The translations under genes and the position numbers were made by a program. A stretch of DNA of 64,000 bases from an uncultured bacterium (GTDB lineage: Bacteria > Acidobacteriota > HRBIN11 > JAKEFK01): NCBI GenBank assembly GCA_963777505.1, contig CAVZQN010000005.1:81321-145320 (forward strand), written 5' to 3'. Positions within the stretch are counted from its first letter, which is position 1. Each line of letters opens with the position of its first letter. The notes under the pieces were generated by a model. That model was given only the letters and a program-made list of their open reading frames with translations. It made no database searches and was not told the DNA's origin. Positions 22,130 through 55,020 of the stretch are shown in pieces.

Positions 22130-22660
22130 ATGTCTAAGATAGGAAATTTACCGACAACGGATCCATTATGGATCGACCAAAGAATCATGGATGGCAAAGA
22201 ATTAACAACCGGCGAATCTCAGATCGCGAAGGATCAGACGAATGCGATGTCAAAAACCCTGGAGATCCTTGGTAAGCCAGTTGCGAAAGGAGATTACAAA
22301 GCTGCAAATGCAAAGGCAGCCGAGTTACAACAGCATTTTGAATCACTTTCACCGGACGTTAAAAAGAATCTGTATAACAACCTGCAATCCAAAACGGGAA
22401 GCGGCATTATCGACGGGACTCTCGCTGGACAATTCCGCTATTACCTTTCGACCGGACAAAGAGACAAGTTGTTAAAGACGCTTAATCCAGACCATCAAAA
22501 AGATCAGATCAAAAACTACACATTGAATGATGCTAAGGAAAAAGCAAGCAAAAGCCTTGAAATGAACATGCAAGGAACACAAAAGCAGAAAGAATTGGAA
22601 GAATCGATTAAAAGGTTAGGAGAAGAAAATAGAGGCATCATCAGTAATCTGCGGGGCTGA
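22130..22660 (+). CDS. Hypothetical helical protein without signal peptide
   Basis: RBS AGGAGG, 176-aa ORF, followed by a terminator. Confidence 0.75.
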   Translation: MSKIGNLPTTDPLWIDQRIMDGKELTTGESQIAKDQTNAMSKTLEILGKPVAKGDYKAANAKAAELQQHFESLSPDVKKNLYNNLQSKTGSGIIDGTLAGQFRYYLSTGQRDKLLKTLNPDHQKDQIKNYTLNDAKEKASKSLEMNMQGTQKQKELEESIKRLGEENRGIISNLRG

Positions 22661-22682
22661 ATTTATTATCTTCTACGTTCAT

Positions 22683-22739
22683 GAAGTATGATCCGGACGA
22701 ATGCTTACAGCAGGTTGTCCGGATCGTACTTCTTTTTTT
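22683..22739 (+). terminator. Intrinsic terminator between convergent genes
   Basis: Long stem GAAGTATGATCCGGAC / GTCCGGATCGTACTTC followed by a T7 tract. Confidence 0.75.
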
Positions 22740-22750
22740 AAGATGCCGTT

Positions 22751-23179
22751 CTAGTTAGTTCCCGATTTCCAGCTTTCTTTTTCAACTTTCCAGGTCTTGT
22801 CTTCAAGAATCATGTGAATCGTACCGGTTTGTTTCGCACCAGTTTCGTCTTTACCTTCCGCATTCAGGTTCGCATCTTTTGAAGTCATCGTTCCGCCAAT
22901 GACCTTAATGTCCTTCGGTTGAAGCGCCTGAATCATTGGAAGCATCTGTTTCATTTGTGGATCATCAAGCTCTTTCGCACGGGCTGCTGTAACCATTTTC
23001 TTGAGAGCTGCTACATCTCCAGATGCAAATGCTTTGGTATAGGTCATGTAAACTTTTCCGGGTTCGCCTCCATCTGCAGGCAATGTTGTCGGTTTTTCGG
23101 CAGTCGTTTCAGCCGCAAATGACAGCACCGGTGAAATAACGAACATCAACATGAAAAGAACACAAAATCTTTTTAGCAT
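22751..23179 (-). CDS. Secreted hypothetical protein, NTF2-like/DUF4878-like
   Basis: RBS GGAGG, signal peptide, AFASGD helix and G.I.MILED..WKV end. Confidence 0.7.
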   Translation of the reverse strand: MLKRFCVLFMLMFVISPVLSFAAETTAEKPTTLPADGGEPGKVYMTYTKAFASGDVAALKKMVTAARAKELDDPQMKQMLPMIQALQPKDIKVIGGTMTSKDANLNAEGKDETGAKQTGTIHMILEDKTWKVEKESWKSGTN

Positions 23180-23243
23180 AGAGTCCTCCCTTGTTAGCTG
23201 AGAATGCTAGCATGATTTTTAGGATTGTAAAGTTTTTGATGGT

Positions 23244-24860
23244 CTAATTCGATGCAGGAGAGGTTGCGGACTTTTTAAGGTCTTGATATTTCGAGACTGA
23301 TTCCGATTTGCCCAGTAACTCGTAAAGAGCAATAAGTCGATTGAGTGTGCGTTGAGTTTGTTTATTTTGGTCGCCACGATTGGTTTTAAGAATTGAATAG
23401 CTTTTTAGCAAAAGACGCTCAGCTTCATCGTAACGATCCAGTGCAAACATGCACTCGCCGAGTGCGCTTTCTGCTTCGGCAGTTTGCCAGTGACCTTCCG
23501 GTAATTTATTCTGCCAAACGGATAGTGCTTCACGTAAGAATGGTTCTGCATTCACAGAATCGCCTTTGTCCAAAAGCAAGCAACCGAGCCCGTAAAGAGT
23601 TTGCCCAATAAATGTGTCTTCGGAAGGCTGTGCGCGATAAATCGCAAGAGCCTCGCGGTAGTAAGATTCCGCTTCAGAGTAATCCCGTTTTTCGGAAAGA
23701 ACATTTGCGAGGCTTGTCAGATCGTAGGCAACGTTCGGATGATTTTCGCCGCGTAATTTTCGATCGAGCTCCAGTGCTTTTCTTAACAGCGCTTCCGCGG
23801 AATCCAAATCACCTTTGTGACGCAATACGCGCGATAGATTCACCATCGTTGTTACGGCTGTCGGATGCTCACCGCCGTATAAAACATTTTCAATGGCCTG
23901 AGCCTCTCGATACAATTTTTCTGCGTCATCGTATTTTCCTGTGGTATCCAGGAGAATCGCAAAATTATTCATTGTGAAAGCAACCTGGGGATGATTTTGT
24001 CCGAATACTTGTTTGCGAATAGTCAGGGCCTCATGAAACAGTTTTTCTGCTTCATCATATTCAGCTTTTTCATATAAAACGGCGGCAAGATTATTCAAGC
24101 TTTCGCTTGTCTCCGCACTCTGCGGGTTCGTGAGTTTCTTTCGGATCGATAGTGCATCGCGATGAAGAGCCTCTGCCTCCTGATATTTTTTCTGGACAAA
24201 AAGCAACCATCCGAGATCGTTCTTGCTCAGGGCAACGTCCAGATGTTCTTTTCCAAGCAACTTTTGGCGAACTTCAATTAACTTGCGCATCATTCGCTCG
24301 GACTCTTCATAATTACCTTGTTCATAATGCAAATATGCAACGCTGTTGAGGCTTTCAACGACATCCAGATGTTCTTCGCCGTGAATCTTGCGGCGAATAT
24401 TTAACGATTTTTCCAAAAGCGGTTTCGCTTCGTTATACATTCCAAGACTTTTGTAAACATCACCGATTACATTCATCATTTTTGCTTGAACTTCCGGCTG
24501 GTTTGCCGTCTCTTTCTCAATTTTTGACGCACCTCGCTCCAACAATTCGCGGGCTGTAATGGTCTGTCCTCTTGATTCGCTGGGATCGGAAACTTGAAAT
24601 AGTTCGATCAAATATTTTGAAACTTGTTTGGCTTTTTCTGCTTCGATCTTCGCGCGGTCACGCTCATTCGATATCTGGCGAATATAAAACCCAAACAATC
24701 CTGCAATGACAAGAACAACAATCGCAATTGAAACAACGCCTGCAGTGGGACGGCTTACAAATTTGCGTGCGCGATATCCAACAGTAGATGGCCGCGCAAT
24801 TACTGGACGTCCTTCTAGATGGCGCCGGATATCATCAGACATTTGTTCCGGTGTCTGCAT
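23244..24860 (-). CDS. Membrane-anchored TPR (kinesin-light-chain-type) protein; kinase-less derivative of a Ser/Thr kinase-TPR protein
   Basis: Begins with a kinase C-tail (DDIRRHLEGRPVIARP), then a TM helix, F..SDP....G..ITARELL and many HxDVAxSLNNLA-type repeats. Confidence 0.85.
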   Translation of the reverse strand: MQTPEQMSDDIRRHLEGRPVIARPSTVGYRARKFVSRPTAGVVSIAIVVLVIAGLFGFYIRQISNERDRAKIEAEKAKQVSKYLIELFQVSDPSESRGQTITARELLERGASKIEKETANQPEVQAKMMNVIGDVYKSLGMYNEAKPLLEKSLNIRRKIHGEEHLDVVESLNSVAYLHYEQGNYEESERMMRKLIEVRQKLLGKEHLDVALSKNDLGWLLFVQKKYQEAEALHRDALSIRKKLTNPQSAETSESLNNLAAVLYEKAEYDEAEKLFHEALTIRKQVFGQNHPQVAFTMNNFAILLDTTGKYDDAEKLYREAQAIENVLYGGEHPTAVTTMVNLSRVLRHKGDLDSAEALLRKALELDRKLRGENHPNVAYDLTSLANVLSEKRDYSEAESYYREALAIYRAQPSEDTFIGQTLYGLGCLLLDKGDSVNAEPFLREALSVWQNKLPEGHWQTAEAESALGECMFALDRYDEAERLLLKSYSILKTNRGDQNKQTQRTLNRLIALYELLGKSESVSKYQDLKKSATSPASN

Positions 24861-24945
24861 CTATCTCCCATGATGTCTAAGATTGACCTACTATAAACTG
24901 ATCGGCATGCAAGAACAAATTACGGACAGAGAAGAATTTCGTGAC

Positions 24946-25488: not shown

Positions 25489-25491
25489 AGT

Positions 25492-27469
25492 TCACCCTTT
25501 TTGCAGAATTTCGTTTACGGCGCGATAAGCTTGATCAATTGCAGCATCAGCATACGAATAGGCTGCAGCATCGGCGTTTGCGATTGCCAACCGTCCGAAT
25601 GGTTTTCGTGCACGTTCACAGGGCAATTCACTTCCATCCAACCAGAATGAATCGTATAAGGAATTGTATTGATACGCATAACCATGCGCCCAGCGATTGA
25701 CTGTAATTGCGCGAATATCTTTTGCCGCATCGAAACCTGAAGGGCTCAGCATTCGCGAAAGTTGTTCGCGAATTTTTAATTCGTACGTTTCGAATTTTGT
25801 AGTAAACATTTCGAGCCTTCCAGCCTGATGCTGCTGGCGCGCGGGCAAGCCTGGACTGCATGGCGTGCGCACCATATGAACGACCATCGGCTCTTCCGGT
25901 TGCGTTGAACATTTGTAATTTCCAATACTCACCGGCAAATCCAAGCTTACAAATGAATGATACGAACCGGGACAATAAACCATAGACGCGCCAGCCTTCA
26001 CAAAAGATTTCCAATTCGAAATCAAGACATTTGTATAAAGCAGCGGCACCTTTATACCGTATTCAAGAGCTTCTTGTTGCGGCTTCGGCAATTCAGGGCA
26101 AATATATGGAATTACTGCATTCCAGCACGCAAGAATACAATGCTTCGCTTTCACCTTTTGAAATTTCTTGTCTTTTACAAAAGCCACATCAACGGAGTTC
26201 GAAGAGGCTGGATCGCCATTATGTTTTACCTGAACAACAGTACTGTTTAGACGGATCCGAGTTGGTGAACTGGATTGATCAAGCTTTGAATAATTACAAT
26301 GCGCGGTGACGATGTCATCTATGGTTCCGCCGGGAAGCACCCCAGGGATTAAACGCCGGACTAGCAATCGTGCGACGCTTGCATTCCCATCCGGAAAATG
26401 GAAAAAGAATGCTTCGCCGGCTTCCGGATAATACATCGCATCAAAATTCATTCCTTTGCCAAAAGATTCATCCAAATCCAAGGCCATCAAATCCTGGCAA
26501 TCCAAGCCCCCATGCATCTTGAGCCGGTACAGCTTCAATCCCCACACCGAAAAGGCCATGAATCCGCGATTGAAAAAACTTCACAACATCCGTGTGCACT
26601 TTCACAACATTTGTTAAAAAATCTGCATAGCTCATGCGCGCGAGCCGATCTTTCTTTTTCGATGAAGATAGACCGGGCATGTAATCAACACTTTTTGTAT
26701 AGAGGCGTTCGAGATCGCGTTTGGCAACTTCGCTAATCGGTGCTTCTGCAAGAAAAGTTTTCCAGGTCTCAGGGTTGCTTGCTATTTCGTCACCGGTGTC
26801 GTCCCATAATCCCCTTAAAGGAAACTTCACAAGGCGGTCTGAACCGAAAGTTTCGCGGTCAAAAAAGACTGCAGGTTTCAGATTCAAAGAATTATAAATT
26901 TCACGTTTCAAAATTTTCGGCCAGCGTTTCATATCAATGCCGAGTTCTTGAATCAATCCTTTTGCAACGGAGCTGAAGGGAAGTGGACTATCAATAGAAA
27001 AAGAGCCGCCAAAACCGAGCATTGTACGGTTGTCAATTCGGAACTCATTCCGCTTTGCGTGTCCGCCAAAATCATCGTGATTATCCAAAAGGAGAATTCG
27101 TGCGTTATTTCCGATTTGTTTTCTATAGAAATATGCTGCGGAGAGTCCGCTGATTCCTGCACCAACAATCACCAGATCATATTCTTCGCCTGTTTCAGAA
27201 GGTGTTCCTGATTTTTTCCAAAATGAACCGTCACGCAATTCATGAGCTACTTCAAATGAACCAGCATGATTTCCGCGCATTCCGGTAAGAGCCGGAGGAT
27301 AGTATTCATCGATCTGTTCCGGTGTGAACTTTGAAGCTTTGTCCGATTCTTTTGAACAAGCAGGAAACAGGGAAGAGCCAACGGTTAAGGCAACGCCGTT
27401 GAGGAAATCGCGCCGTGTAATCCGGCGGTTCATTCCGAATTTTTCGGAATCACTCTTTTTGTTTTTCAT
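25492..27469 (-). CDS. spdH: Spermidine dehydrogenase-like FAD oxidoreductase with Tat signal; apparent 1-nt insertion near 26478
   Basis: ITRRDFLNGVA, YYPPALTGMRGNH, GAGISG, DNHDDFGGHAKRNEF, HFPDGNAS, ITVNRWAHGY and AIDQAYRAV. The two ORFs join as GFDGL/DLDESFGKG. Confidence 0.82.
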
Positions 27470-27568
27470 CGAAAATTATTGCGGAATTGTGTCGTTCCAG
27501 AGGCTTGGCCATTTTAGCATGAGCCATTCTTTGTGGAAATTGTGAGTCGCTATATATATGATGCGTTC

Positions 27569-30000
27569 TTAATCCACCGGAAGTTTCATTTTTTTCAGAA
27601 ACGCCGTCCACCGTGGATCACGCTCAAGGCTGCGCAGCAGCGGATCGCCTTTCATTTCGCTCAGGCCGCCGTCGCGTTGTTTGTAGGCGCGCTCGAGCCA
27701 CTCGAAGGCTTTGTCCGTTTCGCCACGGTAAGCGTAGATCTGAGCAATCTGGAATGCTGCACTCACTCTGAAATTTGTCAATGATACTCCGCCAGTGCAG
27801 CATCGGCTTCCTTCTTCTTTCCTGAGGCATGATAGGCAAGTGCAAGTCCTGTACGCGCGCCAGCGGGCTCCGGTTCTTTCTGGATCTCGGCAAGTGCTTC
27901 TTCTGATTTGGATTGCATCAAATAGAAGAGGCCCAGAGCACCTGTGCGTACCAGGAAATTGTGGGTTCAGCTCCAGAGCCTTCCGGAACGCTGCATCAGC
28001 TTCTTCCAATCGTCCGGCGGAATATGAAGTGATTACCCAGATTGCTGTATGTTGTGACTCGGAGCGGATCGAGCTGGATTGCACGGCGGTCGAGCGGGAT
28101 CGCCTCGTCGTAACGACCAAGCGTTGATGCAAGGGCAGCTGCGCCGCGGACGACATCCGTATTTCCTGGCTCAAGCTGCAATGCACGCTGGTAGGCTGCA
28201 TCAGCACCGGTCCAGTCCCAGTCGTAATTGCCCAGCTTAATCCATCCAATCTGTGCATAAGCCTCGGCCGAGGTTTGGATCCAGTTCCAGCGCCTTTTCT
28301 GCTTCCTTTCTGCGCTTTTGCAAGTAACCTTCGTCTACAGGCACGTAGCCAGAATCGGCCTGAGCGAAGTGTGCACCGTGGACAATCCCGACCCAGGCTG
28401 CGTGCATAATTCGGGTCGATCTGCAGCGCCTGCTCGAAGTAGTCCAGTCGCGTTTTCGAGATCTTTCTTGGTCGCGACGGTCGCGGAAGTAGCGTCCTTG
28501 CAGGTACGCGTTATAGGCTTCGGGATTTGTCTGCTGTGCTTTTGGATTCTGTCCGCCGTCCAGCGTTACTTTCAACGCTTCTGATACCGATCCAGCAATT
28601 TCATCTTGAACAGCAAAGATATTTTCCATCTGCCGGTCGTAAGTCTGCGACCACAGATGCGAGTCGGTTGATACTTCGATCAACTGCGCGGTAATTCGCA
28701 ACTGGTTTCCAGCCTTCCGAACACTCCCTTCTAATACATGCGTCACATTCAGTTCTTTGGCGATTTTTTTGATATTGACTTCTTTCCCTTTGAAAGAGAA
28801 GGCGGAGGTGCGCGAAGTAACTTGCAGTTTCGGATTTCTTGCAAGCACGTTTAGCAGTTCTTCGGTCAGTCCATCGGAAAAGTATTCTTGCTCTTTGTCC
28901 GCGCTCAAGTTGGTAAACGGCAGAACGGCAATGGCGGTCTTGCTGGTTGCTGCAACCGGCGCGGCCGTTTTCGGCTGTTCGCGTTTGAAGAGGAAGAATG
29001 CTACTGTGAATAGTACTACAACGATAGCAGCAATGCCGATCCATACTCCCATCTTTTTCGGAGGGCGGCCCTCCGTGGCCGCCGTTTCAATGGCGGGCAG
29101 GGACGCCTGCCTCCGTGCAGGGAGGGCCCGCACCACATTCGAAAACGATGTATCACGTTTCAATCGCTGCAAATCGGTGCGCATTTCTGCTGCACTTTGA
29201 TACCGCAGATTGCGATCCTTCTCCATTGCCTTTGCAATAATTTCTTCAAGCTTTGCAGGAACTTTCGGATTCAATCGCACAGGTGCAGCAGGCTCCTTAG
29301 TAAAGATTGCTTCCAGCGTTTCACCGGTGGTTTGACCGCCGAAGGGGAGTGCACCGGTTACCATCTCATAAAGCACTACACCAAATGAGAAAAGATCGGT
29401 GCGCGCATCCAAGTCTTTTCCGCGTGCTTGTTCGGGAGACATGTAAGCAACAGTCCCCATGGTCGATCCACTCTTGGTCAGTTGTTGCGGTTCACTGGCT
29501 GTTGGCATTTCAGTATCTGTTGATTCGATGCCGCTTTGTTTGGCCAAACCGAAATCGAGGACCTTTGCCTGTGCGCGTTCGGTAACGAAAATATTGGCTG
29601 GCTTTATGTCGCGATGAATGATCTTTTTCGCATGAGCTGCATCGAGTGCATCCGCAATCTGTGATCCCAGTTCCAGAACTTGATCGATGTCCATCGGCTT
29701 TTGATTGATCGTATGCTTGAGCGTCTTTCCTTCCATTAGCTCCATCGCGATAAACGGACGCCCTTCATGTTCACCGATTTCGTAGATCGTACAAATGTTT
29801 GGATGGTTGAGTGCCGATGCAGATTGCGCTTCGCGGCGGAACCGTTCCAGCGTTTCGGGAGTCTTTGCCAGATCCTCAGGCAGGAATTTGAGCGCCACAT
29901 GACGTTTGAGGTTAAGATCTTCCGCCTCATACACCACGCCCATTCCGCCACCACCGAGCTTATTTAAAATACGGTAATGAGAAACGCTTTCCCCGATCAC
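27569..30000 (-). pseudogene. Ser/Thr kinase, TM, TolB-like domain and TPR (copy 2); several frameshifts in the TPR part
   Basis: Near-identical to copy 1 in the kinase and TolB-like domains. TPR pieces alternate between frames over 27780-28490 and end ...FLKKMKLPVD, like copy 1. Confidence 0.8.
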
Positions 30001-30174: not shown

Positions 30175-33100
30175 TCAGGCTGAAATCTTTTCAAATCGCG
30201 GGGTGCGATACCCTGAGTGTTGAATCAGGTGTTGCGCTATACCCATAAAATCTTCGCCATAACGTTCCTCAAGCTGGCGAGTGGATTCTTCCAGTTTTTC
30301 AAAATGTTCCATTTCGTTTTGTAGTTCAACAAGTTTCTGTAAACTAACGCGATACGCTTCGAGCGATTTTCTTGCGTTGCCTTGCACCATTTCCGCAAAC
30401 GGTTCGAATATTCCGAACTGATCTGCGACGTCTGCTGGGATGTGGTTATTACGCAGTTCAGCTAATCCTGCTTGATAATCGCCATGGACCATAGACTGGA
30501 ACAGTGGCTGTGCGGACGTCAGCATGCTCAACAACTGTTGCACGTCTGTTCCTGCGAATGCATTGAGTCCTGAAAAATTGTTCAAAGTTGAACGAAGATC
30601 TCCACTTGCAATCGCGTTCAAGAATCTAGATCCTGACCGTGTCAGATCATTCACCATCTGAAATTGCGGCGAGCCAAGGATCTGGTTTGCTGATGCTGAG
30701 ATTTGACCGACTGCTTGCGACAGACCGCCACCGCCGATTACTTGCAGGAATCCGTTTTCACCACGCAGTACATTTACGAGTTGCTGCGGATTGCCGCTCC
30801 CTAACGCTCCAATCAAATTTGATACCTGACCGAGCGAATTAATAAGACTTGCACCAGGTCCGGCGTTCAGCAATTCATGGCTTGTAAGTAAACTGCCAAC
30901 TGCTCTACCGTAGTCGCCCTTGCTCAAGGAATTAACAAATCCTAATCCGTCATTCACCCAACCTAAAGCCCGCGCAGCATCAGGATTATTGGCAATGAAC
31001 GGGGCCAGTTCATTGGAAACAATTCCAAGCGCCTTGCTTGCATCTCCACTTGCAATTGCATCGATGAATGGAGCAGCTTTTTGGCTGTACTGAGTAACTT
31101 GCTGAATGAGGGGGTTATTACCTAAGACAGGTCCTAAAACTCCGGTGGCGCCATTCACAATTCCTGTAACATCGCCACGGCTGATTCCATCTGCTAGGGC
31201 GAATGTTTTCTTTGCATATTCCATTACTGGACCGGAACCGACTCCTGCAAAACTACCGACCGCTCCTAGAACATTTCCATCTGCTACACTCGTTCCAATG
31301 CCGATAGCTGCTTGACCTACTTTACCAGCGGTAGTAAAAGCTGCTTTTGTTGCGCCACCAATTGCAGCACCCACACCGGGAAGTGCACTGGCCATGTTTG
31401 AAAACATTCCCAGTACGTCACCTTTCGCGGCTGACATGGCTGCTTTTACGCCGAAATAAATTCCACCAATCACATTCCCTACACCAGGAACACAAGCAAC
31501 AACTGCCATTGCTATATCAGCGATCGGTCCAAGAGATGCAATAAAATCCTCTGTGAAACTGGTTGGAACTGGATACATACTGCGAGCGGCTTCACTAACG
31601 TTACCCAAATGTTGAGTGAATGCACCGGTTGAATTCTCAAATTTCGCGATTCTTGCGCGCAATTCCTGAGCTTCCCGACTGTTCGGTCCTAATGTTCTTT
31701 CTATAGTGGCAAGCTGATGTTTGAGCGGACCGACAATGGCCTGACTGTGGCCATGCATTTGCTCGGCTCCTTTGCCATAAATGTGAGCCATCCGTTTTGT
31801 TACAAGTCCACTCATTTCTTGTTCTGTAAGGCCATACTTAACCCGAAGTGAATCCATTTTCTGAGTCATATACTTTTCTCGGGCTTCCTTTAGATCAAGG
31901 TCATTTTGCTGTGCATATTCCTGGACCTTCTGTTCGAAATCAGGAGCGCTTGCGATTCTGTTTGCTTCAGCTGTTAATTCAGTGAAATCCATCTTCGGAT
32001 GACCCTTGAGTTCACGATCACGCTGAATGAGTGCAAGCTCATTTTCGGCCTGTGGATCCTCATCAAGAGCGTACATATCCTTCGCCATGTCTTTTTTAAC
32101 TTTGCCCGCTGCTTGATTGCCTGCCTGCTGGAGTGGATCATTGGCGTCATTTGGATCCATCTTGTATTCCGGACCCACTGCATCAACTTCGTTCTCCGTC
32201 GGATTGCGGGTAGCGGTATATTCTGCATGCTTTTTTGGATCCGCTAATATGTTCTCGTGTTGCTTGGCAAGCGCTGGATCATCGGCTAATTCGGTTCGTC
32301 CCCATCCCCCCATTAGCTTATTGATTTTTTCTTTGCTTTCATCATCATCCATGTCATTGAGAATTTCTTTTCCGCCAACCAGATTCACAAGCTCATCAAA
32401 CTCTGCCTTATCTTTGCAGCTTAACAGGATTCTTTTAATCGCAGCATCCTGATGATCTTTTGTATAACCACGCTGAAGTTCTTTGATTAACTTTGCCTTC
32501 TCGCCTGGTGTTGCAACTTTCATAGCGTCTTTGTCTTCCGATAGTTTGACCGCAAGATCGGAATCTTCATACATTGCCGCACGCCCAAATGCTTCGCGAT
32601 ATTCTTTTACTTTTTCAGGCGGCAAACCATAACCTAGTTTGGGCATATCAAAACGCTTTGCCACTGCCTCGAGCCGTTTTAATAGTTCAGGATCTTTGAC
32701 CTGGTGTTTCAGATCCAGGCCGCCGAGTTCAGTTGCCAGTTCTCTAGCCTCTTCGGGTGTTTCGCACTTTTCTAACATCTCGATAGCTTTAGTTGCTGAT
32801 TCTTTTTCTGTATTAATCCACTTGCTTTCAGCTTCTTTGAACCATTGCTTTGCCTGATCTTCTTCAAGTTCGTCGAAAACTAAATGGCCTCCTGCAAGTT
32901 CCGTAACTTTGTTCCATTCGGCTTTGGAATTTACGCTAGCGCAAATTCTTGCGATAGAGCAGTCTTGACTTCCATCGGTATCTCCATCCATCAGTTGCTT
33001 GATGAGCTTCGCTTTTTGTTCAGGAGATAGTTTTTTTAGCATTTCAGGGTCATTAGAAATCCTTTCGGCTTCTTCGTCATCGGCACAGGCAATTCTGTCA

Positions 33101-33951
33101 TCAATCTTTTTTTGATCTTCTGCGGAAACCTTGGGCTTCTTTGATTCGTCAATTTTTCCGCCAGCAAGGCCGCCTGAATCTTTAAGCTTTTTCGCTTCTT
33201 CCATACGTTTTTGATGTGCAGCCGGATCTCCAGAACCAAACTCTGTTACCTTTTCGCCTTCAGAAAGCTCACCGGATTCCGGATCTAATTCACTTTTTTC
33301 TGTTTTTGTAGATGTCGATTTTTTTGGATTAAATGCATCGGGCGAATATCCAAGAGGCATTTGGCCGGGTCGTCCTTGTAATGCAGAGAGCATCATTGCA
33401 AATTGTCTAAGGATTTCACCCATTGGATCTCCTGACTCGGCTTGATTGCCAGCCGGCTGCGCAATCTTTTCAGAAATCGTTTCGTGAAGGGTGGTCTCTG
33501 CCTGATCACCTGCATCTAACAGATCAAACGCAGCACGTGTATCCATTTCAGGTGGTAATGACAAGTTTTGAGCTTGAGAAAGAATCATGTCTAGTTGTTG
33601 AAAGGCTTCCAACATCGGATCAGACTCTGGTAAACCTTGTAGATGCTGCTCAAGATTGCGGATTTGTCTGCTAAGTTCGGAGAGCGGCACCTGGCTCTCT
33701 TGAACTACCGCTTTCTTTGATGCGGTTGTGTCCATTTTCAAAAACTGATTTTGTAAAATTTGAGCGGTCAGAGTTTCTATTGCTCTGATCTGTTGTCTTT
33801 CAGTTCGAATTCCCTGTTCCGTTTGTGGCTGATGAGACGTCTCGCTATGAATCAGCGCTTCGTCTTCTGATAGTTGATCAACAGAAGCTTGATCCAGTTT
33901 TTCCGCTAAGATTTGCGCAAGTTGTTGATTGTTGTTTGTGCTGCGAATCAT
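30175..33951 (-). CDS. Large hypothetical protein (1258 aa) with two annexin-like repeats and a Gly-rich hydrophobic C-terminal half
   Basis: Long ORF with RBS AAGGAG; internal duplication KAKLIKQLMDGDT..QDCSIARI / KAKLIKELQRGYT..QDAAIKRI. Confidence 0.85.
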   Translation of the reverse strand: MIRSTNNNQQLAQILAEKLDQASVDQLSEDEALIHSETSHQPQTEQGIRTERQQIRAIETLTAQILQNQFLKMDTTASKKAVVQESQVPLSELSRQIRNLEQHLQGLPESDPMLEAFQQLDMILSQAQNLSLPPEMDTRAAFDLLDAGDQAETTLHETISEKIAQPAGNQAESGDPMGEILRQFAMMLSALQGRPGQMPLGYSPDAFNPKKSTSTKTEKSELDPESGELSEGEKVTEFGSGDPAAHQKRMEEAKKLKDSGGLAGGKIDESKKPKVSAEDQKKIDDRIACADDEEAERISNDPEMLKKLSPEQKAKLIKQLMDGDTDGSQDCSIARICASVNSKAEWNKVTELAGGHLVFDELEEDQAKQWFKEAESKWINTEKESATKAIEMLEKCETPEEARELATELGGLDLKHQVKDPELLKRLEAVAKRFDMPKLGYGLPPEKVKEYREAFGRAAMYEDSDLAVKLSEDKDAMKVATPGEKAKLIKELQRGYTKDHQDAAIKRILLSCKDKAEFDELVNLVGGKEILNDMDDDESKEKINKLMGGWGRTELADDPALAKQHENILADPKKHAEYTATRNPTENEVDAVGPEYKMDPNDANDPLQQAGNQAAGKVKKDMAKDMYALDEDPQAENELALIQRDRELKGHPKMDFTELTAEANRIASAPDFEQKVQEYAQQNDLDLKEAREKYMTQKMDSLRVKYGLTEQEMSGLVTKRMAHIYGKGAEQMHGHSQAIVGPLKHQLATIERTLGPNSREAQELRARIAKFENSTGAFTQHLGNVSEAARSMYPVPTSFTEDFIASLGPIADIAMAVVACVPGVGNVIGGIYFGVKAAMSAAKGDVLGMFSNMASALPGVGAAIGGATKAAFTTAGKVGQAAIGIGTSVADGNVLGAVGSFAGVGSGPVMEYAKKTFALADGISRGDVTGIVNGATGVLGPVLGNNPLIQQVTQYSQKAAPFIDAIASGDASKALGIVSNELAPFIANNPDAARALGWVNDGLGFVNSLSKGDYGRAVGSLLTSHELLNAGPGASLINSLGQVSNLIGALGSGNPQQLVNVLRGENGFLQVIGGGGLSQAVGQISASANQILGSPQFQMVNDLTRSGSRFLNAIASGDLRSTLNNFSGLNAFAGTDVQQLLSMLTSAQPLFQSMVHGDYQAGLAELRNNHIPADVADQFGIFEPFAEMVQGNARKSLEAYRVSLQKLVELQNEMEHFEKLEESTRQLEERYGEDFMGIAQHLIQHSGYRTPRFEKISA

Positions 33952-34035
33952 AATTCTTTCTCCTTACTCAGGAACCTTAGTTCCAATTATTTTTTGACTA
34001 GCACTTTTCAATTTCTGTGCCTCACATTCCCCTTA

Positions 34036-34051
34036 AGCAATCGCCATACCA
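34036..34051 (-). promoter_or_regulatory. sigma54 (-24/-12) promoter for the 1258-aa gene
   Basis: Minus strand reads TGGTATGGCGATTGCT (GG-N10-GC), 85 nt before the ATG. Confidence 0.6.
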
Positions 34052-34137
34052 TGCTTGGAATTGTGCCAACACGAGGATGCTACTGATGAAGCCACTGGAA
34101 TGGTTCAAAGTCTTTTTAGCGGAAACGCTAAAATGTT

Positions 34138-34151
34138 TGGCAATTTTGCCA
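34138..34151. promoter_or_regulatory. Palindromic putative enhancer site between divergent sigma54 promoters
   Basis: TGGCAA-TT-TTGCCA lies about 90-110 bp from each -24 element. Confidence 0.45.
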
Positions 34152-34257
34152 CTCTAAGCTGAGTCCTGCTGAAAAAAATCTTCTTCTAACTTCAAGAAAA
34201 ATTTACATGCTCTCAATAACTTAAAATCGTCCTGCCAAATTCATGTTGAATACCGTC

Positions 34258-34273
34258 TGGCATGCTGTTTGCT
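34258..34273 (+). promoter_or_regulatory. sigma54 (-24/-12) promoter
   Basis: TGGCATGCTGTTTGCT is near-consensus and lies 44 nt before the ATG at 34318. Confidence 0.75.
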
Positions 34274-34317
34274 AAACGATGTGAGGCAACAAAAATAAAT
34301 AGCCGGGAGAAGAAAAA

Positions 34318-36408
34318 ATGATTAGAAAAATTGATGGCGCGTTCACCGGAACGATTGCTCAATCTGCAGAGCCAGCTAGCGCAGAAAAAACAAACCAACC
34401 AATTCTTGAAAATGCAAAGCAGGTCATTGAAAACTCAAATTTGGCTGTTCGCGAAGATGCTAAAGCACCCCCCGATCTGCGTAACACTCAACTTCAAGAG
34501 AGTGCGCTGGCCGGACAAACAATGGCAGTGCGACTTTCATCAATGATTACATCTTCGCCTGTCACAGAAACAGAGACCGATAAGAAGCCTCCGAAATCCA
34601 CAGAAACTGCGGCGCCGCGTGAACTATCCCGGTGGAAAAATAATGAAGGTACAGACGTTGAGAGTATGCAAACACAGATTAATGAATGGAGGGCACAAAA
34701 TGGAAAACCTCCAATTAAAGTAGACGGCAAATTTGGAGCAGAAACCGAAAAAGCAGTGATTGAATTTCAAAAGGCAACAGGTCTGAAGGCAGATGGAATT
34801 GTTGGAGCGAATACACGCAGCAGACTTCAATTAGAGAATGACGCCAACTTCCGAGCGTTGCCGGATGCGACTAAAAAAGAAGTTCGCGACTCTATGAACA
34901 AATATCAAAAAGATCCTGCAGCACGTGAAAATCTTCATGAACTTGCAACCAGTTCAGCTTTTAAGGGTATGTCACGCGATGGCCAGGAGCTTGCCCTCAA
35001 AAAACTGGCAAAGAACCCAGGAGATGTATCACATGCACAAGACGTGGGTGAGTATGCAAAGGATCGCTCTTACATGGAATCGCATGGCAATTTCAAAGCT
35101 CTCGATGCTACATATAAAGAAAAAGTGCTGAAACAGTTTGATGGTTATGCAGGCAATGCGGAAGCACGACAATCCTTAATGTATATCGCAACCGATGAAA
35201 GTTTTGTCAAATTGACCCCGGATCAAAAAGACAAAGTTCTTAAAGCTTACGCTGAAAATCCAAACTTTGAGACATCCGCCGATCTTCGCAAGGTTATCAG
35301 TAACGAAGCATTTGCTGGAATGGATGATTCGCTAAAAAACCGATCACTCGACATCGCCGTAAAAAATGCGAAAGATACGCAAGCCAGCTTCGATCTCGGG
35401 ATGCTTTTTACGGAAGACAAGTTCGCTAGCTTGTCAAATGCTGATAAGGCGAAAGTGTTGAACGTATTTGAAAATGCTACACCGGCAGGCAGAAGAGAAC
35501 TCCGCCACTTATTAAATAAGGAAGTAAATGGAAAGCCTGCTTTGTTGGCTACTTCTCCTGGCAGCAGTGCGACTACTCTGGATCATCTAAATCGTTTGGC
35601 TGAAACTCCTTTACATTCAGCGATCACAGACAGCACAGGCTCACCTCAAAACAAATCAAAAGTCATGGAGGATGTGCTGAAGGAGATCAACAAGCCGAGC
35701 CAAAATCTGAATCAAGGCAACAAAGGGACATGCACGGTTACCAGCATGACACACACTCTGGCAGAACAGAATCCAGCTGAATATGCGCGCATCGTTACCG
35801 ATCTTGCTACAACCGGACAATCTAAAATTGCGAATGGCAACACGATTACTCCACCCGCAGATGGATTCGCGCAGGACAACAGTGATCGATCAGTCAGCGA
35901 GCGTCTGTTGCAGTCGGCTTTAATGAACTACGCTCGGCCGAGCGCAGGGTATCAAAATTGGAACAAAACCGGATTTCCGACTTCCGGCGGCGGAACTGTT
36001 GATAATGGCTTTCCACCGAATGGAAGTGGTCTAGTTGCGGCTGATAACATGCGGATCATGCAAGGACTCTATGGAAAACAAATGGTAAATCATACCGATA
36101 AAGCTAAGCTTCAGGCCCAAATCCAAAACGAAATTAATAAAGGCAATGTTCCAATATTCACTGGGGTCAATTGGGGTGCGGGGCAGGCTCATGCTATTGA
36201 AGTTTTGAAAATTGAAAATGGCAGGGTTTATTTTAGGAACCCACATGGGCCGGGAGCGGTATCTTCAAATGGCACAATGATGGGTACTGCTGCCAACAAC
36301 ACGAATGCCGGACCGTTGCGCCGAACCGAAGACAGCGCCAATGGCGTCCAATCAATGACCATTAACGATTTCAATAACGCTGTGAGAGACATCATCGTTG
36401 CGAAGTAG
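34318..36408 (+). CDS. Peptidoglycan-binding domain, helical repeats and papain/calpain-like cysteine peptidase
   Basis: [39 protein letters not shown] (PG_binding_1); [14 protein letters not shown] and YFRNPHG give a Cys-His-Asn triad. Confidence 0.8.
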
Positions 36409-36418
36409 GAGTAAAATC

Positions 36419-37267
36419 ATGAATACAAATATGGAATTGAATCATAGTATGCTCTTTGTCCCTGCTGGAGAATTTAGCATGGGCATCTCCACGGAACAGG
36501 CTGATCAATTTGCGCAAAAATTTCTGAATCTTGAATCCGGAATGAACCCATATCTCTTCTACAATGAAATTCCGGTGCATCCAATGAAGCTTAAGGCATT
36601 CTTGATCAGCAAGAACGAAGTCACCAATCAAGAATATTTGAAATTCGTTCAAACAGGAGGCTATCAAAACCCAGACTATTGGAAAGAACTGATTTCAGTC
36701 GAAGAACCGAACGTGCCAGGAAGCGGCGCAGACAGGATCCAGGTTTTTGTGGATAAGACCGGTAAACCAGGTCCGGCTGTTTGGCAGGATGGAACATTTG
36801 TAAAAGGAAAAGGGGATCATCCTGTTGAGGGGGTATCATGGTATGAAGCCGCAGCCTATTGCCGGTGGAAAAAAGTACGTTTACCAAGCGAGGCAGAGTG
36901 GGAATATGCAGCGAGAGGAACGGATCAGCGTATATTTCCCTGGGGTAATACGTATGAGATTTTGCAGCAGCTGAATTCCGGTGAATCGAATGAAGTTTCC
37001 GGAGCTGGCGCAAGGCAAGATAAGAGTCCCTTTGGGTTGGTTGATCTTGCGAAGAATGTGTCGGAATGGGTTAACGATTCATGGGCTTTATATATAGGAT
37101 GTCCAATCGCCGTGCAATCGTATGATGAACCGATGGGGGTTGTGAGAGGTGGAAACTATTATTCTTCACCCTATGAAATGAGAACAACCTTCAGGAAAAT
37201 GCGACCACGTTCAGATCGATCTGCGGGTATTGGATTTCGTTGTGCAGTGGATTCGGTTCGGCAGTGA
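36419..37267 (+). CDS. FGE-sulfatase (SUMF1/EgtB/PvdO) domain protein lacking the FGE catalytic cysteines
   Basis: VPAGEFSMG, EVTNQEY, HPVEGVSWYEAAAYCRW, RLPSEAEWEYAARG, NVSEW, RGG and GFRC; the RBS overlaps the upstream stop. Confidence 0.9.
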   Translation: MNTNMELNHSMLFVPAGEFSMGISTEQADQFAQKFLNLESGMNPYLFYNEIPVHPMKLKAFLISKNEVTNQEYLKFVQTGGYQNPDYWKELISVEEPNVPGSGADRIQVFVDKTGKPGPAVWQDGTFVKGKGDHPVEGVSWYEAAAYCRWKKVRLPSEAEWEYAARGTDQRIFPWGNTYEILQQLNSGESNEVSGAGARQDKSPFGLVDLAKNVSEWVNDSWALYIGCPIAVQSYDEPMGVVRGGNYYSSPYEMRTTFRKMRPRSDRSAGIGFRCAVDSVRQ

Positions 37268-48510: not shown

Positions 48511-49353
48511 ATGACTTTTATTCGACGGATATTAGATCCTACAATCATTGCAACGAATCAAGAGCCGCCAGCCGAAGTGACACCACAATCACAGCCTAAA
48601 CCAGAAACCAGCTTTGGAATTGCGTCCAGTTCAGATCTATTTGTGACATCTTTACCAAGCAGTTTCGAATTTTTGGAACAGCCACCTCAAAGCGTTGCTT
48701 TGACCGAGCCCTCTATAACTTCAGAAATGACTGTAGATGCTTCTTCCATTTTTACCCAGGTCGAAACCGCCCCAATGGTATTAGATCAGGCTTTACAGGA
48801 TCTATTGGACCGGTTGAAGCCACTAAAGGAAAAAAGGCAAGAACTCATAACGCAAATCAGTGAAGCACATGAGAAGATTCTGCAGGCCCACGAAGCTCTG
48901 AGCAAAGTGTCGGAAGCGCTTGATTCCGACAAGCCGATTCCTGATGAAGTTCAAGCTGTCCTGGGACAATTGGGTATTTTGGGAATTATTGGAGGACTTC
49001 CTGCAATTCCGATTGTGGGTGGAATCTTGGGTATGCTCGGCTTGTCTGAGGATTACAAGAAGAAAATGCGGAATGCTATTGATGAGATGCATCGCCAGAT
49101 TGGAGATTTGAACTTGAATCTGCACCATTTGCAGGAAGAGCTCGAGGGTGTGAATAGTGAAATTGAATCAGTAACAAATGAAATAACAGACAAGCAGAGA
49201 TCTTTTCAGACTGATTCGGATTTTACAAACGGAATGGTTGCGGAGCCAATGCTTCAACAATTGAACGTCGATCAAAACCTGATTCAGGAAGAAAACAATC
49301 CATTTGCGGTTTTGTTCAAACCGATGGTTCAAATGAAAGATGATGAATCATGA
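48511..49353 (+). CDS. Hypothetical coiled-coil protein with a central Gly-rich hydrophobic segment
   Basis: RBS GGAGG; two coiled coils flank VLGQLGILGIIGGLPAIPIVGGILGMLGL. Confidence 0.75.
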   Translation: MTFIRRILDPTIIATNQEPPAEVTPQSQPKPETSFGIASSSDLFVTSLPSSFEFLEQPPQSVALTEPSITSEMTVDASSIFTQVETAPMVLDQALQDLLDRLKPLKEKRQELITQISEAHEKILQAHEALSKVSEALDSDKPIPDEVQAVLGQLGILGIIGGLPAIPIVGGILGMLGLSEDYKKKMRNAIDEMHRQIGDLNLNLHHLQEELEGVNSEIESVTNEITDKQRSFQTDSDFTNGMVAEPMLQQLNVDQNLIQEENNPFAVLFKPMVQMKDDES

Positions 49354-51426: not shown

Positions 51427-51500
51427 TTATGAATGTTAATTCTACTGTGTTCTATAATGATCAGGAAATAGAACTGCAGCTCTGCGGGCTATCTTTTTTT

Positions 51501-53076
51501 ATGTCCATCGCGATCAAGCAGCCATGTGATGAAGGAATCATTCGTTCCAGTACGGCTACCTCTCCGTGCAAGAAATCTGCTGAACCCTGGATCATGGCGG
51601 CCACTATTCTCGGTTCCAGCATGGCATTCATCGATGGAACTGTTGTCAACGTTGCTTTACCGGCTTTGCAAACGAATCTGAATGCCACAGTTGTTGATGT
51701 GCAATGGGTCGTTGAAGCGTACTCACTTTTCCTTTGCGCTTTGATATTAGTTGGTGGATCTTTAGGAGATCGATTCGGAAGAAAATTGATTTTTGCAATT
51801 GGTGTTGCCATCTTTGGATTCGCTTCAGTTTGGTGCGGCTTATCAAGGAGCGTCACTGAATTAATCTTTGCTAGAAGCGCGCAGGGAATTGGTGGTGCGT
51901 TGCTTGTACCGGGAAGTCTTGCCATCATCGGTGCATCTTTTAATGAGGGAAAGCGGGGAAGGGCATTTGGAATGTGGTCAGGCTATACATCGATTACGAC
52001 AGCCATTGGACCTGTTCTCGGCGGATGGCTGGTTGAACATATATCCTGGCATGCAGTATTTTTCATCAACATTCCTATTGCTGTAGCCGTCTTGTTTATT
52101 GTTTTCTGGCGTGTACCTGAAAGCCGCGACGAAGATGAAGCAGCGCGATTAGATTGGTGGGGCGCATCTCTCGCAACACTCGGGCTGGGATTGCTCGTCT
52201 ACGGATTGATCGAGTCCTCCCGCCTTGGTTTCAATCATTTAGTCTTGATCTGTATTGCCCTTGGAATCGCGATCCTTGCAGCCTTTCTGTTTGTTGAGAG
52301 TCGAATTCAGCATCCGATGCTTCCTCTAACTGTATTCCGCTCAAAAATTTTTAGTGGTGTTAATCTAATGACATTTTTCTTATACGTTGCGCTGAATGGT
52401 GCACTCTTTTTCTTTCCATTGAATCTGATTCAAATCCAGGGTTATTCACCAACTGCAGCTGGGATGGCTTTTCTTCCGTTCATCCTCATTATGTTCTTAC
52501 TGTCTCGTTGGTCAGGAGGACTTGTTCAGCGGTATGGCGCAAGACTTCCGTTAACGATTGGTCCGATAATCGCGGCAGTAGCTTTTACGCTCTTTGCGGT
52601 TCCGGAATTCAGCAAGAATTTCTGGACCAGTTTTTTTCCTGCAGTCGTTTTGCTGGGTTTTGGGATGGCAATTAGTGTGGCGCCACTAACAACAACGGTC
52701 ATGAATTCGGTTCCACAGAATCACTCAGGAGTCGCATCAGGAATTAGTAATGCGGTCGCACGTACGGCAGGACTGCTTGCAATCGCGATTTTCGGGATCA
52801 TCATGCTCCGCTATTTCAATCATTCGCTGAACGAATACTTAACGAATAGTGGCATCAATCCTGTTATTGTTGCTGACGACCAACGTGTAAGCCTTGCTGC
52901 AATGAAGTTGCCGCCGAATATTCCGCAAGAAACACAAACAGAGCTTCAACATGCAATAAAATATTTCTTTTGTTTCTGCTTATCGATTCGTCATGTTTTT
53001 GGCCGCTGGTCTGGCTATTACAAGCGCCTTATGCTCATTCCTGTTGATCAAAGATAAAAACGCTAAGAGCCGGTAG
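51501..53076 (+). CDS. DHA2 (14-TM) MFS efflux transporter; apparent extra T near 52962
   Basis: FIDGTVVNVALP, GDRFGRK, LDWWG and GVASGISNA. The final TM (SFVSAYRFVMFLAAGLAITSALCSFLLI) lies in the shifted frame and ends at 53076. Confidence 0.88.
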
Positions 53077-53095
53077 GGGCGGGCCTTGTGACCGC
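53073..53095 (+). repeat. GTAG-type REP-like element
   Basis: GTAGGGGCGGGCCTTGTGACCGC. Confidence 0.6.
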
Positions 53096-53179
53096 TTGTT
53101 TGGAATACCGCTCTAACTTTGAGGACCCTCGCAGCATCAACCTCTTGCGAAATTCGCGGTCTAATACCAAGAGGGCCAC

Positions 53180-54076
53180 ATGCAATCAAATGTTCTGCGT
53201 TTTTGTCTTCTGTTTGCTTTGGCTGTGTCATCGGCAGCTAGCAGTCAAACAACATCTCAAAACATTCAAACTAAAGAATTGACCAGCAAGGTATTTAACA
53301 ACACGAGAACTATTCGAATTTTAATTCCGCCTGACTATCAGGACCCTGCAAAGTCTACAGAAAAGTATCCGGCGTTGTATTTAAATGACGGATGGATGGT
53401 CTTCGACAACAACGAGAATGGAATCCGGATTGAAGAAATATTCCGTGATCTGTATGCTCAAAAAAAGATTCCGCCGTATCTTGTGATAGGAATTGATAAC
53501 GGAGCATCAACGGACAAAACACAAGATGAAATCCGTGACCGCGCCAATGAATTTTTACCGTATCCTGATGCCGGATTCTCACCAGGACATACATATGAGC
53601 CGGTCCCACCTTCACCGCAGGGAAAACTGTACCCAAAATTTCTAATTGAAGAGGTAATGCCATTTATCAATCGCAGCTACCGCACGAAGACGGGGCCGAA
53701 AAATACAGCGATTGGCGGTTTCTCCTATGGAGGCGTAAGCGCGCTCTACACGGTGATTGCTCACCCAAACGTATTCGGAAAGCTTCTTCTGGAAAGCACT
53801 CCTTTATATATAGGACATCATGAGGAACTAATGCAGGATGCAGAAAAGGCAACGGTTTGGCCTCGCGCTGTATATATAGGAAGTGGAACAAAAGAGTCGG
53901 ATGAGGAAGCCTTTAATGAAAAGGGCCGGACGAATCAGATTCGCCTCATTGAAATCATCAAAAGTCACTCGCCCCAATCCCGATTGAAGCTTTATCGGGA
54001 GGAAGGAGCCACTCATGACACCACTGCATGGCGAAATCGTCTGCCTGGCGCTCTCACATTCCTGCTTTCCGAATGA
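53180..54076 (+). CDS. Putative esterase (alpha/beta hydrolase, IroE/Fes-like) with signal peptide
   Basis: RTIRILIPPDY, YP.LYLNDG, IGGFSYGG and H...AW..RLP.AL motifs. Confidence 0.88.
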   Translation: MQSNVLRFCLLFALAVSSAASSQTTSQNIQTKELTSKVFNNTRTIRILIPPDYQDPAKSTEKYPALYLNDGWMVFDNNENGIRIEEIFRDLYAQKKIPPYLVIGIDNGASTDKTQDEIRDRANEFLPYPDAGFSPGHTYEPVPPSPQGKLYPKFLIEEVMPFINRSYRTKTGPKNTAIGGFSYGGVSALYTVIAHPNVFGKLLLESTPLYIGHHEELMQDAEKATVWPRAVYIGSGTKESDEEAFNEKGRTNQIRLIEIIKSHSPQSRLKLYREEGATHDTTAWRNRLPGALTFLLSE

Positions 54077-54101
54077 GTAGGGGCAGCTTTAGTGACCGCC
54101 C
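54077..54101 (+). repeat. GTAG-type REP-like element
   Basis: GTAGGGGCAGCTTTAGTGACCGCCC. Confidence 0.6.
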
Positions 54102-54247
54102 ATCTTGATATACAAACTATTTGAAACTTTCGTGCTCTCCGTGACTCTGTGGTAAATCTTCAGTGTTTTTGGTCATTTTGCAAAATAACTTTTGCATTTT
54201 GGCCAAAATCGCGTTTGGGTTGTAGAACTTCACGAGAATGTTCAGTC

Positions 54248-54263
54248 TGGCATAACCATTGCA
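54248..54263 (+). promoter_or_regulatory. sigma54 (-24/-12) promoter
   Basis: TGGCATAACCATTGCA, followed by RBS AAAGGAGG and the ATG at 54297. Confidence 0.75.
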
Positions 54264-54296
54264 ATGACTATTGGCGTGCCCAAAGGAGGGTGTTGT

Positions 54297-55020
54297 ATGC
54301 TGCCGATCAATAAGTTTAGTGGATTTTCTACGAATACGATTCAGACGGAGAATGAAGCAAAGTTTGAACAAAACCAAAGCTTTACTAAAGCGGCCATTTC
54401 TTCAGGGATTGCAACGACGAAAGACGGTTTTGACGCGACTGCGACAAAAGCATCTCTGTTTGAATCGTATGGCCATGAAATCATTGGAAAAATTGGCATC
54501 TCACCGCGCAGCAATATAAATGAGATCAGTCAATTTACCGGCGTGCCTGTAGATCAATTAAAGTCAATCTTTGCAAAGAACGGCTTAACCCCGGGAAAAT
54601 TGCCTTACCCACCTGATGAAAAAGTAATTGCACTTTTGAAAGACCCTGCATTTGCGTCACTCAATGAAGCGGATTTGTTATGGAAAGTCTACAATAATTT
54701 TGAAAATATCAATCAGGAGCCTTCTTCAACTCCGCGAAATTGATAGCAAATTGAATATGATTTCGCCTCTTCTTGAAGCGATTATTCCAAATGGTGTCCA
54801 GGGCGTTCGGGATGCAGCGGCAGCACAAGCAAAATTCCAGGAAATCTCAGACCTTACAGGCAAATCGCTAACCGAAGTTGAACAGTTATTTCAAAAATAT
54901 CATCTGAAACCTAGCTCGCTTCCGCAGCCGCCTGACTACAATGTGCTTGCCTTTTTAAAAGATCCGAATTTTTCTGCAGTGAGTCCTTCTTTGTTACTCT
55001 ATGCGACTTACGGTTGGTAA
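54297..55020 (+). CDS. Hypothetical protein with two ~60-aa repeats; apparent 1-nt insertion near 54720
   Basis: ORFs 54192..54743 and 54652..55020 join as NQE/LLQLREIDSKL; each half carries one repeat. Confidence 0.7.

Follow-up and report, generated by a model that had tools for sequence, protein, structure and literature searches.

Candidate antibacterial repertoire of signal-less orphan proteins with modular leaders, including a papain-fold protease paired with an FGE-domain gene

Description of the repertoire

The window, the whole stretch of 64,000 nucleotides (nt) analysed here, lies on contig CAVZQN010000005.1 of an uncultured bacterium and contains five orphan genes, named by their starts: 22130, 33951, 34318, 48511 and 54297. 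These are best explained as a dispersed antibacterial set with modular uncleaved leaders, a presumed type III-type export apparatus, a protease gene paired with an FGE-domain gene, and pore-like helpers; this explanation as it stands is credited about as much as it is doubted. It is fairly probable that they are an antibacterial set exported in some way other than the plain flagellar one. New here, as judged from the sequence, would be a repertoire of toxin and immunity type with an unmodelled protease family and modular leaders.

Under this explanation the orphans would belong, as dispersed members, to an arsenal for attack on other bacteria, each produced with no cleavable signal. The leader would be modular, opening with a short basic-hydrophobic stretch, followed by a polar linker and, after this, either a G-I-A-x3-D-x-F motif or an E-x2-L-x-G-Q helix. 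It would be recognised by the chaperone or export gate belonging to a type III-type apparatus with genes at another place in the genome; that apparatus would be either flagellum-derived or similar to T3SS*, a Myxococcus type III secretion system (T3SS). Gene 34318 would encode a papain-fold protease toxin, docked on the target envelope by its peptidoglycan (PG)-binding module, and a co-transcribed FGE-like protein would bind and neutralise it in the producer. The products of 33951 and 48511 would form pores or act as helpers that insert into membranes. In this genome sigma54 would turn on three of the genes.

All five open reading frames (ORFs) are present in the ORF list with the starts and N-termini given in the first-pass annotation. 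Conserved families exist for four of them (22130, 33951, 34318, 48511); 54297 was compared with other proteins only by an Atlas look-alike search. Apart from PG_binding_1 in 34318, none of the five matches a Pfam or NCBIfam family model. The reported lack of Sec and Tat signals is confirmed: a Sec-type hydrophobic stretch or Tat motif is found in 0/5, and the absence is family-wide. Of the 154 homologues 145 start with Met; 144 of these have no Sec-like stretch, the sole exception being an N-truncated fragment, and a Tat motif occurs in 0/145. The screen was based on hydrophobicity and a Tat pattern, not on SignalP.

The five do not form one sequence family; all-against-all BLAST gives no cross match below E 0.01. 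This lack of cross-family homology suits a second reading, that of five unrelated proteins specific to their lineage, with disordered N-termini. Gene 34318 would then encode a self-directed peptidase for wall remodelling or processing, with a partner of FGE fold, and sigma54 would mark a broad stress or development regulon. Such a reading is improbable. It has to contend with leader motifs that form conserved islands crossing family borders, and with a PG-binding protein that must get out of the cell although no homologue has a signal.

Description of the protease and its partner gene

Gene 34318 (34318..36408, plus strand) encodes a candidate effector of 696 amino acids (aa), composed of a leader with the helix motif (residues 57–74), PG_binding_1 (111–170), a helical linker and a protease domain (400–696). 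The assignment of the C-terminus to a papain-fold cysteine protease is new with respect to the first-pass annotation; it is supported by sequence and predicted structure. Residues 400–696 give 73 homologous matches, and the protease family has no Pfam or NCBIfam model. Q466, C472, H625 and N641, that is, the oxyanion Gln and the Cys-His-Asn set, are invariant in 43 aligned sequences. The predicted structure of the domain has a pLDDT (predicted local distance difference test score) of 91. The top fold matches all belong to the papain-like clan: ComA peptidase (Z 11.4, root-mean-square deviation (rmsd) 2.5 over 133), calpain-9 (Z 10.3, rmsd 4.4 over 208) and, by Foldseek, calpain-1 (probability 1.0, E 1.4e-3). 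Other fold matches are C39 peptidases, staphopain, a contact-dependent inhibition (CDI) toxin (8ssm) and the pseudomurein endoisopeptidase PeiR. The peptide-processing C39 domains and PeiR among them are what a self-directed peptidase beside unrelated neighbours would also lead one to expect. Protease homologues occur in Hyalangium and Archangium. Both genera belong to Cystobacterineae.

The PG-binding domain is present as described (PG_binding_1, E 4e-14). It does not force action outside the cytoplasm, as had been argued: it is found in only 15 of the 43 aligned family members, and the partner protein has no signal peptide.

The partner gene (36419..37267, plus strand) begins 11 nt past the protease stop and encodes an FGE-sulfatase-domain protein (PF03781, E 1e-47), a candidate immunity protein or chaperone. 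The protein has no signal peptide and no DinB domain; in the alignment it lacks the FGE catalytic cysteine pair, presumably located behind the RGG motif. Conservation of the pair was assessed in a related-locus set from a single genome scan, comprising 24 loci (labelled L0xx; individual homologue proteins are labelled P0xxx) in 22 genomes, with flanks of up to 10 kb per side. In these loci 290 ORFs were called by a heuristic caller, which missed at least two genes; 272 were scanned with Pfam, the 18 under 95 aa being omitted. Beside the window itself, the FGE gene stands directly behind the protease gene in 8/24 loci, equal to 6/22 genomes, or in 8/21 of the loci with at least 1 kb of flank, three having too little. 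The pairing is kept in 5/7 of the most similar loci. Records with the pair are labelled Acidobacteriota, Myxococcota and unclassified.

The two genes are best read as a putative effector-immunity pair, because FGE-fold immunity (type VI secretion system, T6SS) and papain-like interbacterial toxins have already been described. A chaperone role of the FGE protein is the alternative. The predicted complex of protease domain and FGE protein scores 0.00, which counts neither for nor against binding. A correlation of protease and FGE identities (rho 0.72) was set aside as pairing evidence, since kinship alone yields such a correlation. No vgrG, hcp or PAAR gene is linked to the FGE gene in the window or the scanned flanks; hence the FGE protein is not classed as Tsi3. 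In L004, L005 and L006 the location of the partner is less certain: its reading frame continues open towards the upstream side, and a signal-like peptide might be encoded there.

Several protease loci have further features. L005 carries an array of protease and FGE genes (3561–6419, 8602–14758) with three tandem units, one of which is a PG-binding protein with another C-terminal domain and an FGE fragment; another orphan with a polar leader, preceded by a strong sigma54 site, follows the array (14997–16028). Tandem diversified units of this kind are typical of conflict loci, which speaks against a self-directed peptidase. In L004 a large gene with RHS repeats (1–6711, minus strand), which has Pfam matches of TcdB-mid and SpvB type, lies 2 kb from the protease-FGE pair. 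The alphaproteobacterial record L002, without an FGE gene, has one and the same leader shared by two proteins, the protease and another with a weak match to Peptidase_C39_2 (8723–10900 and 11517–12401). Near the protease homologue of L023, genes for macro-domain, PARP (WGR, regulatory, catalytic) and ADP-ribosylglycohydrolase proteins are clustered (15087–19093). A conserved operon of 3–4 paralogous proteins of ~800 aa likewise contains this protease domain (L016, 694–9791; L025, which is Pararhizobium qamdonense plasmid p2, 6272–23336). Pfam gives no match for the L016 proteins, nor NCBIfam for the two checked, and the operon is possibly an undescribed system.

Description of the leader motifs

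The motif G-I-A-x3-D-x-F was reported as common to two orphans, and stands at residue 36 of 48511 (48616–48642) and residue 37 of 54297 (54405–54431). The exact pattern occurs twice in 132,256 residues. The form G[IV]x4DxF is found in 17/28 homologues of 48511 as a conserved island in the leader. A profile of these 17 scores 17.5 bits against 54297 (shuffle p 0.0015); runner-up scores are 4.9 bits for the next window gene and 9.9 bits for the best of the 290 locus ORFs. The shorter D-x-F-[DESTQ] lies near residue 40 (mostly 38–47) in 14/32 distant homologues of the 34318 protease, a count that overstates independence because the homologues are related; the background is 0.64 in shuffles and 14/290 in control ORFs. 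Several of the D-x-F-bearing homologues are from named myxobacteria.

The E-x2-L-x-G-Q helix is conserved around residues 50–75 in near homologues of 34318. After iterative training, which left out 7/40 near homologues as truncated or differently built, it is found in 28/33, a circular count. It is probably common to 34318, 22130 and 33951, judging by profile ranks: a profile of the 34318 family only places 22130 second and 33951 third among 42 window genes, at the sites named earlier. The scores are low (22130, 8.8 bits; 33951, 5.3 bits, alone p 0.20), and a stricter first profile finds neither 22130 (p 0.26) nor 33951 (p 0.87). At the helix site p<0.05 is reached by 13/39 homologues of 22130 (family-level p 0.03) and by 3/10 of the 33951 family, two of whose 12 members were left out as N-truncated. 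The copy in 22130 occupies residues 140–157 of 176, near the C-terminus and behind a confidently folded domain, and the motif is thus not simply an N-terminal signal. The earlier view of a helix motif common to three orphans is accordingly retained for the 34318 family, with the 33951 copy weak and the 22130 copy C-terminal.

The N-terminal start pattern M-x0-4-[KR][IVL][DNGSP], a post hoc pattern, is present in 29/37, 28/68 and 15/29 members of three families (shuffle means 0.6–2.5). In being long and polar, with a basic-hydrophobic start, the leaders are reminiscent of substrates of type III and flagellar systems. The leader type of such type III substrates (polar, poorly conserved, with a putative chaperone-binding motif) is matched in outward form by 34318, 48511 and 54297, is weak in 33951 and is not seen in 22130.

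Leaders and bodies have been swapped between the families. In P0154 the 48511 leader is joined to another body; in P0146 a helix-type leader precedes the 48511 body (judged by eye); P0136 combines a 34318-type front with a 48511-type back. L017 has a fusion of the protease with a hydrophobic region like that of 33951 (14.5 bits, iE 0.0014, the best non-family match). In P0105 a protease homologue is fused to a T3SS_HrpK1 domain (E 2e-9, above cutoff). These exchanged modules tie four genes to one class, more so than the promoters do.

Description of the remaining orphan genes

Gene 33951 (30175..33951, minus strand) encodes 1258 aa, with a variable leader, a coiled coil and a conserved hydrophobic Gly/Ala-rich region from ~795; a hydrophobic segment lies at residue 803. 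Two internal helical repeats of ~80 aa (283–362 and 452–536) match each other at E 4e-21; for an annexin-like nature of the repeats there is a weak giardin match only (E 0.37). The family has 12 matches including itself, at 50–100% identity, one labelled Acidobacteria, and no Pfam or NCBIfam family is matched. The sequence suggests a translocator-like or pore-former-like protein.

Gene 48511 (48511..49353, plus strand) encodes 280 aa, arranged as a leader with G-I-A-x3-D-x-F, a coiled coil, a conserved hydrophobic hairpin (154–177) and a second coiled coil. It has 29 homologues. Profile matches are to coiled coils only and sub-cutoff, MakE included (E 0.0016). The product may insert into membranes. 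Sequence and profile searches with 33951 and 48511 give no above-cutoff match to a described translocator or pore former.

Gene 54297 (54297..55020, plus strand) has a leader with G-I-A-x3-D-x-F and two helical repeat copies of 62 aa, which lie in two frames with the break near 54700–54760. The frame 54297–54743 carries on in the other (54652–55020), where the second repeat copy has 39% identity (E 7e-13). The two are probably one frame-broken gene. Its Atlas look-alikes, Cj0814 and DUF3879 at 0.88, serve as a lead only.

Gene 22130 (22130..22660, plus strand) encodes 176 aa, with a folded helical domain and a long C-terminal helix that bears the weak helix motif (22547–22600). The family has 40 matches. 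The model has pLDDT 87.5 overall and ~90 from about residue 10; being folded from there, the protein has no disordered N-terminal leader, as the reading of unrelated proteins would allow. It is the weakest member of the set. Atlas look-alikes are DUF3879, Cj0814 and YopR at 0.90–0.91, under the reliability mark. Beyond the C-terminal helix no fold match is found in Foldseek or VIA-align. Nothing supports a needle, tip or YopR fold, but with the VIA list taken up by the long helix the core was hardly probed. In the homologues P0025 and P0031 a long array of short GDPGF-type repeats stands behind the helix motif. P0001 is 99% identical to 22130, yet has a different end.

Promoters

Sigma54-type sites, like the sigma28-type sites below, were scored against a general consensus. 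Strong sites are found at 3/5 orphans versus 3/40 other genes (Fisher p 0.013, post hoc), and none at 22130 or 48511. The -24/-12 site of 33951 (34018..34051, minus strand) is followed by a 10-nt element that recurs together with the site of 34318 (34258..34288 for both, plus strand); the site of 54297 (54248..54262, plus strand) is strong and of consensus type. The shared element, just past the -12 box, suggests co-regulation of the divergent pair 33951/34318. The pattern TTGC-N4-14-ATGTGAGGCA has 2 matches against 0.01 expected and was derived from those same two sites. Midway between the divergent promoters is a near-palindrome (34137..34152, unstranded) with two overlapping GGNNAWWWTGC matches, a candidate activator site; the pattern is not enriched across the window (10 versus 7.6 expected). 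Upstream of 54297 a 19-nt imperfect inverted repeat (54167..54208, unstranded) contains both ATTTTG boxes and may be another activator site. At both promoter regions, boxes of this kind fall inside a near-palindrome.

The first-pass annotation had described GG-N10-GC promoters with (C/A)ATTTTG boxes at three orphans. The strong sigma54 sites stand, but both bare patterns are at chance level in the window (GG-N10-GC, 332 seen and 342 expected; (C/A)ATTTTG, 48 seen and 60 expected, not enriched) and are rejected as evidence; the chance level of ATTTTG is also what unrelated genes would give. A co-regulated sigma54 set would take in three genes and not the whole repertoire, as the -24/-12 site is not present at every member. 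Nor is the promoter class conserved, because orthologues mostly lack sigma54 sites and some have a sigma28-type box.

Three copies of a regulatory block (55200–55560, 58380–58740, 60820–60950), each with a strong sigma54-type site and a shared box ~105 nt upstream, surround an NtrC-like activator gene (59304–60698) and small genes of stress type, namely BON, STAS and small membrane peptides. This block is regarded as a separate sigma54 unit. Sigma54 sites before three stress-type genes are in keeping with the broad regulon supposed for unrelated proteins.

A sigma28-type -10 box (at least 7/8 matches) lies upstream of 5/17 homologues, compared with 19/271 in the background (shuffle mean 0.8, maximum 5); the protease loci concerned are L006, L014, L019, L020 and L021. 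Together with the sigma54 sites of this genome and Atlas look-alikes that include the flagellar-dependent secreted Cj0814 family, these boxes would fit non-flagellar proteins that an ordinary flagellar apparatus, controlled by sigma54 and sigma28, releases into the medium and does not inject. The -35 matches, however, are poor, two of the five boxes come from near-identical loci, no flagellar gene is present in the scanned flanks, and some homologues are from myxobacteria with a type III system that the excerpts of PMC3459982 describe as non-flagellar. Release of this kind is as improbable as a set of unrelated proteins.

Export route

The first-pass annotation found no secretion apparatus in the window, and none is present among the window proteins scanned. 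T3SS-named matches in the related loci are limited to Yop-YscD_cpl domains of FHA type and one TPR protein that stays under the cutoff for SycD. Since effector genes are often scattered, a missing apparatus nearby neither supports nor refutes a route. The case for a type III route is circumstantial; it draws on the leader form, sub-threshold Atlas look-alikes, the HrpK1 fusion and the myxobacterial homologues. The repertoire proposed earlier is thus upheld in part. Export as an antibacterial set with uncleaved modular leaders gains support from the protease with its immunity-like partner, the leader islands and the shuffled leaders and domains, while the type III route stays a proposal.

Exported toxins could instead take a different route, be it T6SS, contractile injection, a Tad/Kil pilus, type IV secretion, vesicles or lysis, with leaders that act as adaptor-binding tags. 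FGE-like immunity is known from T6SS modules and papain-like toxins from T6SS and CDI, at least in the portions of the cited sources used here, and 8ssm is among the fold matches; no type III gene lies near any homologue in the scanned loci, and the protease domain is also part of a different conserved operon. The same scans, however, reveal no VgrG, PAAR, Hcp, CdiB or pilin gene, the leaders have the look of type III or flagellar substrates, and the Atlas leads agree, though below the reliability mark. Another route is on balance unlikely.

The following results weigh against the explanation by a type III-exported antibacterial set. SctN/V/R/S/T/U, flagellar and Tad genes are absent from the window and from the 272 of 290 ORFs scanned in the 24 loci. 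No structural or profile link joins the orphans to a known T3SS translocator, needle or tip. The T3SS* is described without a translocon, and Kil together with T3SS* as restricted to Cystobacterineae, in the excerpts of PMC12075869, PMC10433427, PMC12428579 and PMC3459982. Among loci with enough flank 13/21 have no FGE gene. The signal-less partner fits a cytoplasmic target and is odd beside a PG-binding module. The protease domain in the unrelated operon of L016 and L025 has no such leader, so that the domain is not bound to a single route. A strong sigma54 site precedes just one of the 16 protease-homologue genes checked, and weaker ones precede two more, which come from one genome. The [KR][IVL] start occurs in 0/11 of the 33951 family, in which the helix motif is not significant at family level (p 0.83). 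Profiles of the 48511 and 33951 families do not align, despite a BLAST hint (E 0.015). P0136 may be an assembly chimera.

Relation to known systems and significance

The nearest comparison for the proposed type III route is the needleless T3SS* of Myxococcus xanthus, a prey-lysing, type III-like system with a Kil/Tad pilus (excerpts of PMC12075869, PMC10433427, PMC12428579, PMC3459982). T3SS* is described as non-flagellar and reported from Cystobacterineae (excerpts of PMC3459982), the group of the homologue hosts Hyalangium and Archangium. Its effectors are stated to be unknown in the part of PMC10433427 used, and are an open question in that of PMC12075869. Common to both are the Hyalangium and Archangium homologues of the 34318 protease with D-x-F leaders. 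The present set differs in the absence of apparatus genes in the scans, in its acidobacterial-looking host and in the translocator-like 33951.

With T3SS translocators (SctE/SctB, HrpK1) and ClyA-type alpha pore formers 33951 and 48511 share a coiled coil and a hydrophobic hairpin. They differ in having no above-cutoff family or structure match and no neighbouring SycD-type chaperone gene.

Tsi3 immunity proteins lack the FGE cysteine pair, and FGE immunity is known from T6SS modules (excerpts of 10.1101/2021.05.21.445229). The protease-FGE pair resembles Tse3-Tsi3 in an FGE fold without catalytic cysteines beside a candidate toxin, repeated in diversified arrays; the likeness rests on the shared Pfam domain. 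Unlike Tsi3, which in that source is T6SS-linked, mostly encoded on the other strand and found as several immunity genes in a row, the FGE gene is single and co-oriented behind a papain-fold protease gene.

Papain-like proteases act as interbacterial toxins, for example Cpe1 (excerpts of PMC12136450). Like Cpe1-Cpi1 and the C. rodentium CdiA-CT (PDB 8ssm, 9l5u), as far as these records describe them, 34318 has a papain-clan fold, a Cys-His core and an adjacent partner gene. It differs from Cpe1 and CdiA-CT in ~12–14% identity, a larger calpain-like domain with inserts, a leader and PG-binding carrier, and an FGE-fold partner.

A further conjecture, possible but doubtful, is that the D-x-F and E-x2-L-x-G-Q leaders serve to address proteins to a T3SS*-like pathway that kills bacteria and is common to Acidobacteriota and Myxococcota. 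If so, the protease-FGE pair with 33951 and 48511 would be the first examples of effector, immunity and translocator proteins of that killing pathway, the unknown T3SS* effectors of myxobacteria could be listed from sequence via their leaders, and the acidobacterial lineage would be marked as a contact-dependent predator. The positioned D-x-F leader on myxobacterial protease homologues offers a concrete predictor for T3SS* effectors. Whatever the route, an unmodelled protease family is paired with an FGE-fold partner outside a visible T6SS context, and the set suggests an uncultured acidobacterial lineage that attacks other bacteria. Among the titles and abstract openings listed by the literature searches none concerns such leaders or a type III-like antibacterial system of Acidobacteriota; this is no proof of absence, and effector lists in supplements could alter the novelty.

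Further features of the window

Named nearest relatives of the orphans carry the labels Acidobacteriota or 'bacterium', which makes an uncultured acidobacterium the probable host. Plasmid searches give no match for 33951 and one distant match for the protease. Sequence searches of the PDB (queries A1, A3, A4, A5) yield only PG-binding and EF-hand-type matches, from fused members. Rfam and tRNA scans of the window give no matches. Several ordinary genes are broken over frames (17647–20000, 25492–27469, 27569–30000; kinases at 20000 and 30000, an oxidoreductase at 27469), which makes assembly indel errors likely; 54297–55020 is a further frame-split gene. The G+C content is ~45% from base 1 to ~61,545 and ~73% beyond. 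The sudden jump takes in 61546–64000, with the start of an EF-G/TetM-like GTPase gene at 63943 (minus strand), and the tail looks like a contig junction or a stretch from a foreign contig or organism.

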